Both the position numbers and the translations under genes were made by a program. A DNA stretch of 41,142 nucleotides from a virus (Duplodnaviria; Heunggongvirae; Uroviricota; Caudoviricetes): positions 1-41,142 of the IMG/VR virus record IMGVR_UViG_2718218402_000007. The stretch is one strand, 5' to 3'. The notes under the pieces were generated by a model. It saw only the letters and a list, made by a program, of their open reading frames with translations, did no database searches and was not told the DNA's origin. Positions 31,323 to 32,514 of the stretch are shown one piece after another. Each line of letters starts with the position of its first letter. Positions within the stretch are counted from its first letter, which is position 1.

Positions 31323-31712
31323 TCAGGCGGCTGCACCCACCGTTTTCTCGTACTTACTGATAGTGATCTCGACCTTCCCTTCCGGGATAACCGGTCCCCA
31401 CTCCACCAGCATTCTTTTCACCTGGCTGTCGTCTTCCCACACACCCGCGTGGGTCAGGGCGTCAAACAGCGCCTTGTTATAGTTGTCCAGATCGCGGATC
31501 CGGTTATCCGGAGGAAACAACACGATCTCCACTGAAGCTGGTGCCGACGTTGGTTTCGGCAAACGACGTAACTGCTCAATGATGGCTGCACACGCTGCGC
31601 TCTGGAATTTTCGCCCCGCCGCGCTTATCAGGCTCTTACCTGCAAGCGCCCCTTTATTGGGGTGTCGCCAGTACGTGTTCACGCTGGGCGGAAAAGGCAG
31701 GATCAATTTCAT
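31323..31712 (-). CDS. rusA: RusA-family Holliday junction resolvase
   Basis: 129 aa with RusA-like motifs (PPSVNTYW ... DLDNYNKALFDALT...). Confidence 0.85.
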   Translation of the reverse strand: MKLILPFPPSVNTYWRHPNKGALAGKSLISAAGRKFQSAACAAIIEQLRRLPKPTSAPASVEIVLFPPDNRIRDLDNYNKALFDALTHAGVWEDDSQVKRMLVEWGPVIPEGKVEITISKYEKTVGAAA

Positions 31713-32035
31713 ACTTTCAGGCCCCTCTCATGTAACCAGTGGGCTGCACGCAACCTGGCGTTTTCCTCACCAGCAAGCAGTGAGCGAATAATCCCGACCG
31801 CCTCGCTGTCGTCGTCCTTCACCGCGGTATGAAGCGTGATACCCCGGGCCACGCCACGCTTTATCGTGATGACGCCTTTTTTCTCCAGTGCGCGAAGATG
31901 CTCCACCGCTGCATTCACCGAACGGTATCCCAGCATGGTTGCCACCTCCTGATTGGTTGGCGGAAAGCCACGTTCTTTCTGATAAGAAATCAGCATATCC
32001 AGCACCTGCTGCTGGCATTGAGTTAACGTCGTCAT
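31709..32035 (-). CDS. LexA DNA-binding-domain-only protein (no protease domain)
   Basis: 108 aa; aligns by eye to the LexA N-terminal winged HTH (TxxQQxV.D.I....GFPPT..E.A..LG.RS.NAA.EHL.AL..KGVI.I..G.ARGI.L) with no S24 peptidase domain. ATG at 32035 overlaps the upstream stop. Confidence 0.7.
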   Translation of the reverse strand: MTTLTQCQQQVLDMLISYQKERGFPPTNQEVATMLGYRSVNAAVEHLRALEKKGVITIKRGVARGITLHTAVKDDDSEAVGIIRSLLAGEENARLRAAHWLHERGLKV

Positions 32036-32514
32036 TAAGCCCCCACGTAATTCCCTGACAGATACCACTCATCACCTGATGCAACACGCTTGCTGCTTTT
32101 CCGTAAGCACCGCTCACGACGTGCCAGAAAATTGTTTCGCTCTGGCTGGGAGTGGCTTTCACGGAATGCCGCCATCCACACCGTTGCAGCACGCCGGAAT
32201 AACCCTCTTGATTCCAGATCCTCTGCCTGCTGAATCAGGCACAAAATCACCCTCTGATCATTGGTACCGACGTAGCTTTTACTGGCCACACTCATATGTT
32301 TCAGCACCGGCTCAGGTGGCAATACAGCCTTGCGAGAAAAATGCCTGTGTGTTTTGCCTTCACTGCGATAAGCAACACGCCTGCACTGTCGTAACTTACT
32401 GGCCGTATTCAGGACGCGGGGACGTGGGTAACCAGCAAACGCATCCGCAATATCACCGGAAGTACACCCCGGATGGGCTTCAATGAATTTCTGAATATCA
32501 CTCATAAGACTCAT
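32035..32514 (-). CDS. Putative regulator with PerC/ANR-like C-terminal motif
   Basis: C-terminal ...LESRGLFRRAATVWMAAF... resembles the ANR/PerC signature; ATG at 32514. Confidence 0.5.
   Translation of the reverse strand: MSLMSDIQKFIEAHPGCTSGDIADAFAGYPRPRVLNTASKLRQCRRVAYRSEGKTHRHFSRKAVLPPEPVLKHMSVASKSYVGTNDQRVILCLIQQAEDLESRGLFRRAATVWMAAFRESHSQPERNNFLARRERCLRKSSKRVASGDEWYLSGNYVGA

Follow-up and report, generated by a model that had tools for sequence, protein, structure and literature searches.

Can a prophage carry the DNA-binding half of LexA without its protease half, and what would such a protein bind once the host SOS response has been triggered? The question is raised by a gene at positions 31709 to 32035 of a caudoviral stretch of DNA (IMG/VR record IMGVR_UViG_2718218402_000007, positions 1 to 41,142), referred to here as the window, which comprises 41,142 nucleotides. 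The gene encodes a LexA-like protein of 108 residues. An earlier reading of the bare sequence, hereafter the original prediction, described this protein as a LexA winged helix that lacks the S24 autoprotease domain, and saw in it a potential occupant of SOS boxes that RecA could not inactivate and a partner of a PerC/ANR-like regulator encoded directly upstream. The open reading frame is real, and its domain assignment, its match in the PDB and its structural model bear out the winged helix without an S24 domain. Tentatively, we favour the reading that the protein is made in lytic growth and binds LexA-type operators without being sensitive to RecA. The parts of the gene that matter for this reading are the following.

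31709..32035, minus strand: coding sequence of the LexA-like protein, 108 residues
31829..32035, minus strand: LexA-type winged helix-turn-helix, residues 1-69, with helices at 6-22, 28-35 and 40-52 and a two-strand wing at 56-68
31880..31918, minus strand: recognition helix VNAAVEHLRALEK, residues 40-52
31727..31813, minus strand: family-specific helical hairpin of two helices, residues 75-103

Residues 1-65 of the protein match the Pfam model LexA_DNA_bind (PF01726) from end to end (model positions 1-65 of 65; E 2.9e-19; 69 bits, cut-off 23.7), and a phmmer search against the PDB aligns the protein with E. coli LexA residues 2-69 (E 7e-16). A single-sequence AlphaFold model was poor, with a predicted local distance difference test (pLDDT) score of 61, and was replaced by a model based on a 25-sequence family alignment, which reached a mean pLDDT of 83.9 and a predicted template modelling score (pTM) of 0.57. 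The winged-helix part of this model has a pLDDT of about 89. The model superposes on the LexA-DNA complex 3JSO with a root-mean-square deviation of 1.1 Å over 68 residues at 50% identity, and its top PDB matches are all LexA. However, the original prediction had the LexA match running along the length of the protein, which proved too generous: it covers residues 1-69 only, and the rest consists of a flexible, low-confidence linker (residues 69-74 in the model) and the two-helix tail.

The tail is what sets this family apart. Its two helices are modelled with a pLDDT of about 88 and share a conserved hydrophobic core (I82, I83, L86, L87, A93, A97, W100 and L101), and the hairpin has neither a counterpart in LexA nor a structural match in the PDB. 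It takes the place of the S24 domain, from which we infer a role in dimerisation. Because the tail is modelled at high pLDDT yet the overall pTM is 0.57, the model suggests that the tail is not docked on the winged helix within the monomer. No Peptidase_S24 match was found in the protein, which ends at residue 108, the next open reading frame being rusA, and the canonical LexA equivalog model TIGR00498 scores it at 70.8 bits, below the cut-off of 110.95. Compared with E. coli LexA (PDB 1LEA, 3JSO), then, the LexA-like protein retains a winged helix that is about 50% identical over residues 2-69, but it lacks the S24 autoprotease and dimerisation domain together with the Ser119/Lys156 dyad, and it carries the helical hairpin instead of the C-terminal domain. 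Its family has no conserved cleavage site, and its gene lies in a prophage early operon instead of at an SOS-regulated chromosomal locus.

One might ask whether such a protein is simply what is left of a full-length LexA or CI-type repressor gene in decay, with no function of its own. The HMMER alignment extends into the LexA hinge and places A88-G89 of the LexA-like protein opposite the LexA cleavage site A84-G85, as a remnant might show. Yet the family does not conserve the Ala-Gly pair (G89 occurs in 14 of the 25 aligned members), the segment is predicted to be helical, and no S24 remnants are found where rusA begins. Conservation of the length (about 106-108 residues) and of the tail sequence extends to members of about 40% identity, the gene is intact in 2232 genomes, and distant relatives (106-135 residues, 39-48% identity) retain both winged helix and tail. 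The remnant explanation is therefore highly improbable, and family-wide conservation effectively refutes it; winged helix plus tail form a stable architecture of two parts rather than a damaged LexA. A88-G89 was also considered as a relic of the cleavage site or as a substrate for trans-cleavage by host LexA, and both ideas were rejected, since the family shows no conservation of this pair.

The family itself is well populated. The protein matches the PHROG 362 profile throughout (residues 1-108 against profile positions 1-106 of 106; E 1.4e-59), is 97% identical to SfV orf42, from which nothing structural distinguishes it, and is identical with RefSeq entry WP_000210164.1, named 'LexA family transcriptional regulator'. 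The same name was given to pham 237 (pfam01726) in a catalogue of Stx-phage gene families, where it occurs in 15 phages (PMC8136144). Conservation in related prophages, which the original prediction named as a check, was found. The gene is present in 61 phage records, including SfII, SfIV, SfV, cdtI, mEp460 and Stx2a, Stx2c and Stx2k phages, with diverged copies (40-47% identity) in mEp390 and Klebsiella phages. It is carried by 2232 of 5426 complete E. coli genomes (about 41%) at 95-99% nucleotide identity and in up to four copies per genome, and thousands of database members share a length of 104-108 residues. K-12 lacks the gene because its CPS-53 element is truncated after yfdM. Such wide spread, together with the conservation, indicates that the family is under selection. 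A profile search of genome contigs with the LexA-like alignment returned mainly bona fide host lexA genes, since E. coli LexA was part of the alignment. As a separate observation, LexA_DNA_bind stretches occur twice in tandem in some metagenomic proteins of 140-350 residues, a sign that these may be single-chain pseudo-dimers built from the LexA winged helix. Overall, the gene is an already annotated member of a very common, uncharacterised family, and a precedent for a truncated LexA in a phage exists.

What the winged helix recognizes should depend on the residues that touch DNA. For LexA, S39, N41, A42, E44 and E45 are reported as the DNA contacts of helix 3 (PMC3091678). At these five positions the LexA-like protein has S39, N41, A42, V44 and E45, so that four of these five contacts are kept, and the wing residues R64-G65-I66 of LexA are retained as well. 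Across the family alignment, whose 25 members reach down to about 40% identity, S39, G65 and I66 are invariant, and N41 and R64 are each found in 24 members. The fate of LexA's N-terminal domain is instructive in this respect: freed from the rest of the protein, it retains SOS-box binding and repression, and for this reason cells need ClpXP to degrade it (PMC10584840). Given the conserved residues and this behaviour of the LexA domain, it would be reasonable to expect the LexA-like protein to occupy SOS boxes without RecA-mediated inactivation, as the original prediction proposed.

The sole characterised phage-encoded truncated LexA homologue is gp6 of the Bacillus tectivirus GIL01, an activator of the late promoter P3 that binds the palindrome GaCACA-nn-TGTGaC (PMC6182141). 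Like the window protein, gp6 is encoded by a phage, in an early operon, and has the DNA-binding domain of LexA only, and the late regions carry LexA boxes (PMC6182141). In other respects the two proteins differ. gp6 has 66 residues and no tail, against 108 residues with a tail, and neither its host nor its virus family nor its genome context is related to that of the window prophage. BLASTP finds no similarity between the two proteins, which are 35% identical in a forced alignment. The gp6 helix VSHKTAHRYL, in which K38 is essential, serves a non-SOS palindrome, whereas the window protein has the LexA-like pattern SxNAAxEHL. As gp6 rewrote its contact helix for another palindrome, the LexA pattern kept here points to CTGT-type half-sites.

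These elements can be assembled into a sequence of events. The LexA-like gene would be expressed only upon prophage derepression or infection, as its operon position suggests, and the protein would dimerise through the hairpin in place of the S24 domain. The four retained contacts and the wing suggest that the dimer would bind CTGT-type palindromes, namely SOS boxes or close variants of them. Neither RecA* nor ClpXP should be able to remove it, because it has no cleavage domain, no conserved cleavage site and no VAA-type C-terminus. A degron of the VAA type is reportedly exposed on cleaved LexA; the LexA-like protein ends in …GLKV. Once host LexA is gone, LexA-controlled promoters would be re-occupied during lytic growth, among them those of host SOS genes and of phage genes with a LexA box, for example the methyltransferase gene (box at 26914-26933).

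Several observations weigh against this scheme. E44, one of the five reported contacts, is replaced by V, and E45 varies in 4 of the 25 aligned family members, which leaves room for a drift in specificity. With another dimer geometry, the preferred half-site spacing could differ. The only characterised analogue, GIL01 gp6, is an activator with its own site. Strong SOS boxes are equally common in related phages without the gene, and no co-occurrence signal emerges from the comparison. Finally, a literature search yielded no functional study of SfV orf42 or of any enterobacterial phage 'LexA-like' protein, only catalogue mentions (PMC8136144).

Part of this evidence bears on the main rival explanation, in which the protein is a phage-specific transcription factor that uses its own operator, activates or represses phage genes from one or a small number of phage sites (near Q/pR' or an early promoter, for instance) and leaves the SOS regulon untouched. 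This explanation is somewhat unlikely in our judgement, although it has a precedent in gp6, with its own palindrome and its activation of P3 (PMC6182141). Within the early operon the gene is found a short way upstream of Q, the lack of co-occurrence between gene and SOS boxes is as expected for a private regulator, and the E44V change, combined with a new dimerisation element, could shift specificity or spacing. Against this, the recognition helix has stayed LexA-like (SxNAAxEHL, compared with SHKTAHRYL in gp6). When CTGT/ACAG half-sites in the window were counted in both orientations at spacings of 0-14, no arrangement was enriched, and no candidate site overlapping a -35 element, as gp6-type activation of a late promoter would use, was identified in the window. 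The gene is, moreover, a mosaic module that moves among phages with different Q, late and immunity regions, which argues against a fixed phage cis-target.

In favour of a RecA-insensitive binder of LexA-type operators, the phages that carry the gene offer strong canonical SOS boxes on which it could act. Candidate sites were scored with a position weight matrix based on 20 SOS boxes known from E. coli; as a positive control, the matrix picked out the dinB operator, which lies in the flanking chromosome, with a score of 16.4 bits. The window contains a single strong LexA-type operator, which lies within the first long gene of the late operon.

26914..26933, no strand assigned: canonical SOS box TACTGTAAAAATAAACAGTG, score 22.2, located within codons 3-9 of the methyltransferase gene that belongs to the late operon
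25889-26941, minus strand: late-operon DNA methyltransferase
27526-27498 (approximate): promoter-like site, taken as pR'
27414-27426: terminator after the candidate pR'

For comparison, when the window was shuffled 200 times, the best matrix score reached 16.8 at the 95th percentile and 24.2 at most. A second perfect CTGT-N8-ACAG, at window position 34279, scores below 8. The methyltransferase box is kept at 20.5-22.9 bits in SfV, phiP27, phiNP, Kp4866-6 and Morganella and Providencia phages. Its strength has been maintained despite differences among these phages in both the nucleotides and the protein of the region (for example, AAC -> TCC and KI -> NL), which suggests selection on the DNA site. 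However, phiP27, phiNP and the Morganella and Providencia phages carry the box without the LexA-like gene. This makes it a host-LexA site in the first place and no evidence for the target of the phage protein; being the one strong LexA-type operator of the window, it is a candidate for binding by host LexA and, possibly, by the LexA-like protein too. No sigma-70-like promoter was seen just upstream of the box, and one possibility is that it serves as a LexA lock on read-through from pR'.

Strong SOS boxes also occur in other phages that carry the LexA-like gene and are potential sites for its product, but they lie at unrelated places: 5' of dinI in 2H10 and mEp390, 5' of a KilA-N gene in SfIV and within cI in SfII. 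In SfIV, the strong box (TACTGTATTTATGAACAGTA, 23.4) is located upstream of the KilA-N gene gp44, directly beyond rusA, which is a pseudogene in this phage and is followed by a promoter-like TTGAGC-17-TATTAC (SfIV 32590-32660). SfIV gp44 resembles an antirepressor-type gene under LexA gating, placed directly downstream of the LexA-like gene. Boxes inside coding sequences of cI-type repressors are found at 29167-29186 of SfII (26.5 bits) and at 2361-2380 of phiNP (22.4 bits). The gene for DinI, a RecA coprotease inhibitor, is present in several carriers of the LexA-like gene (ST846-OXA48phi9.1, 1-969; 2H10, 26202-26511; mEp390, 20396-20725), and these dinI-bearing carriers thus hold further SOS-modulating cargo. 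SOS boxes are thus frequent among these phages, whether the gene is present or not. This fits phages that exploit, and could also modulate, LexA control, but it does not tell the hypotheses apart.

If SOS boxes do not travel with the gene, which of its neighbours do? In the original prediction the LexA-like gene formed a functional pair with the PerC-like gene upstream. The surrounding genes are arranged as follows.

32517..33335, minus strand: replication initiator (HTH_36 / DnaD-like), encoded upstream in this operon
32035..32514, minus strand: coding sequence with a PerC domain, a predicted YfdN orthologue
32033..32037, minus strand: TAATG, in which the stop codon of the yfdN-like gene and the start codon of the LexA-like gene share one base
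31323..31712, minus strand: rusA (Holliday-junction resolvase), whose ATG overlaps the LexA-like stop codon at 31709-31711 (ATGA)

The predicted overlap of the two genes is present: the TAATG junction, with a G-rich Shine-Dalgarno-like run 4 nt 5' of the LexA-like start, is compatible with translational coupling. The notion of a functional pair did not survive comparison with other loci. Across 80 IMG/VR loci that encode a 99-100% identical LexA-like protein, rusA lies directly downstream in every one, while the gene directly upstream is a dam methylase in 45 and a PerC/yfdN-like gene in 32. Where dam is adjacent, the PerC gene is found one gene further up, as in SfV (orf40-dam-orf42); the window has no dam at this place. 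Because dam separates the two genes in 45 of the 80 loci, the TAATG junction of the window represents the dam-less variant of a mosaic region. Divergent relatives lack PerC altogether. In mEp390, which encodes a 47%-identical homologue, the order is rep, LexA-like gene, rusA, DUF968 and Q, with no PerC gene nearby; in Klebsiella phage ST846-OXA48phi9.1 it is dinI, a hypothetical gene, the LexA-like gene, another hypothetical gene, DUF968 and Q, with no PerC gene and no rusA next to it. The conserved linkage of the LexA-like gene is to rusA, not to PerC, and the YfdN/PerC-domain gene is an independent neighbour, not a dedicated partner.

The constancy of rusA invites a further explanation, according to which the protein is a DNA-binding accessory of the recombination and replication module that acts with RusA, and perhaps with the DUF968 HNH-like protein, on DNA intermediates. 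The overlapping rusA start downstream in 80 of 80 loci, the same neighbour in mEp390, where moreover the LexA-like gene follows straight after the replication gene, and the weak similarity of DUF968 to HNH and RecA-dependent-nuclease models are all in keeping with it. Even so, we consider it improbable: a LexA winged helix with preserved base contacts is a sequence-specific duplex binder rather than one for junctions, being neighbours in a densely packed, mosaic nin-type region says little about function, and the ST846-OXA48phi9.1 homologue has no rusA behind it.

The expression expected of a RecA-insensitive binder of LexA-type operators follows from the position of its gene. The prophage of the window is SfV-like, resides in E. 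coli MLI104K1 and has a contractile tail; its integration site is tRNA-Thr, beside proA, and the 2.1 kb surrounding both genes are 100% identical to the MLI104K1 chromosome. All genes treated here are on the minus strand, on the 3' side of the divergent cI (ymfK-type, S24) and cro (ymfT) genes. The order runs cI, cro, ymfL, DUF4222/ash, a small open reading frame, rep, the yfdN-like gene, the LexA-like gene, rusA, kilA-N, DUF968 and Q, and past Q come the promoter-like site, the terminator, a small open reading frame, the DNA methyltransferase gene and the lysis genes. From rep to rusA the genes are tightly packed, with successive junctions formed by GTGA or a 2-nt gap, TAATG and ATGA, and no promoter-like or strong terminator-like site was seen on the coding strand of this segment. 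Consequently, the yfdN-like and LexA-like genes are members of a delayed-early rightward operon, between the replication gene and Q. Judging from this gene order, both should be silent in the lysogen and expressed upon induction or infection.

Three observations concern the same prophage. An open reading frame of 278 residues at 33561-34397 (minus strand), which starts in an ATGA overlap with the ymfL stop codon, is the equivalent of SfV orf37; the Prokaryotic Genome Annotation Pipeline (PGAP) instead gives a shorter 'ash family' coding sequence at 33561-34106 and a DUF4222 coding sequence at 34069-34248 in another frame. One of these two conflicting annotations must be wrong. The cI-cro intergenic region (35190-35280) contains two GTAC-core palindromes, CTTGTACC-GTTA-AGGTACAAG and ATGTAC-N7-GTACAT, which are likely cI/Cro operators and are unrelated to SOS boxes. 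PADLOC gave no meaningful defence-system match for the LexA-like and PerC-like genes.

The PerC-like gene deserves consideration in its own right, since, in the original prediction, it could together with the LexA-like gene modulate host virulence regulators. Its open reading frame is real and encodes 159 residues from 32514, or 161 residues if the GTG start at 32520 chosen by PGAP is used. The relevant match is the following.

32077..32229, minus strand: match to the PerC domain, residues 96-146, with a sub-threshold ANR match over the same stretch

The designation PerC/ANR-like holds in its first half only. The Pfam PerC model (PF06069) is matched at 33.7 bits against a cut-off of 22.6 (E 4.6e-8; model positions 6-56 of 90), whereas the ANR model NF033650 reaches 20.1 bits against a cut-off of 32 (E 4e-4). 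The N-terminal ~90 residues have no Pfam match, and a PDB sequence search with the whole protein returned no match. The protein is 77% identical to K-12 YfdN (159/164 residues, E 2e-90), and PGAP names its close relatives yfdN; by sequence, it is an orthologue of E. coli K-12 YfdN, encoded in CPS-53. It thus resembles the PerC/Pch family in passing the Pfam PerC threshold, but it differs in its length of 159 residues, in matching the PerC model only in part and in falling short of the ANR model. Within that family, the short group-1 Pch proteins activate ler, whereas PchD and PchE, which are outside group 1, have little or no effect (PMC5931665). The group-1 pchABC genes measure 315 bp (PMC5931665), and their products are therefore much shorter than the YfdN-like protein. 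In the same study, yfdN was simply deleted from the reporter strain (PMC5931665). A modulating effect on host virulence regulators accordingly finds no support: the gene encodes a predicted YfdN orthologue, and ler responded little or not at all to PchD and PchE.

What the LexA-like gene means for its hosts depends on which operator it uses. At present, the outcome is the correct annotation of a catalogued gene, accompanied by a plausible hypothesis of SOS silencing. Should the protein instead have an operator of its own, it would be a second independent phage re-use of LexA's DNA-binding domain, after GIL01 gp6. Should it bind SOS boxes, about two-fifths of E. coli genomes would carry a phage-made, uncleavable LexA substitute that acts when host LexA has been destroyed. 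In its most far-reaching form, which is rather unlikely, this would be a RecA-proof and ClpXP-proof 'mini-LexA', present in about 41% of complete E. coli genomes, that re-represses the host SOS regulon and the LexA-gated genes of co-resident mobile elements after induction. Its targets would then include antirepressors, dinI, colicins and the LexA-boxed late-operon methyltransferase, and it would shape SOS mutagenesis, prophage cross-induction and possibly Shiga-toxin output. Many of the carrier prophages are Shiga-toxin or O-antigen-converting (Stx2a/2c/2k and Shigella serotype-converting phages). If true, the finding would therefore bear on the control that induced prophages exert over the host DNA-damage response, on the rivalry of co-resident prophages with LexA-gated antirepressors, and on the antibiotic-triggered induction of Stx phages.

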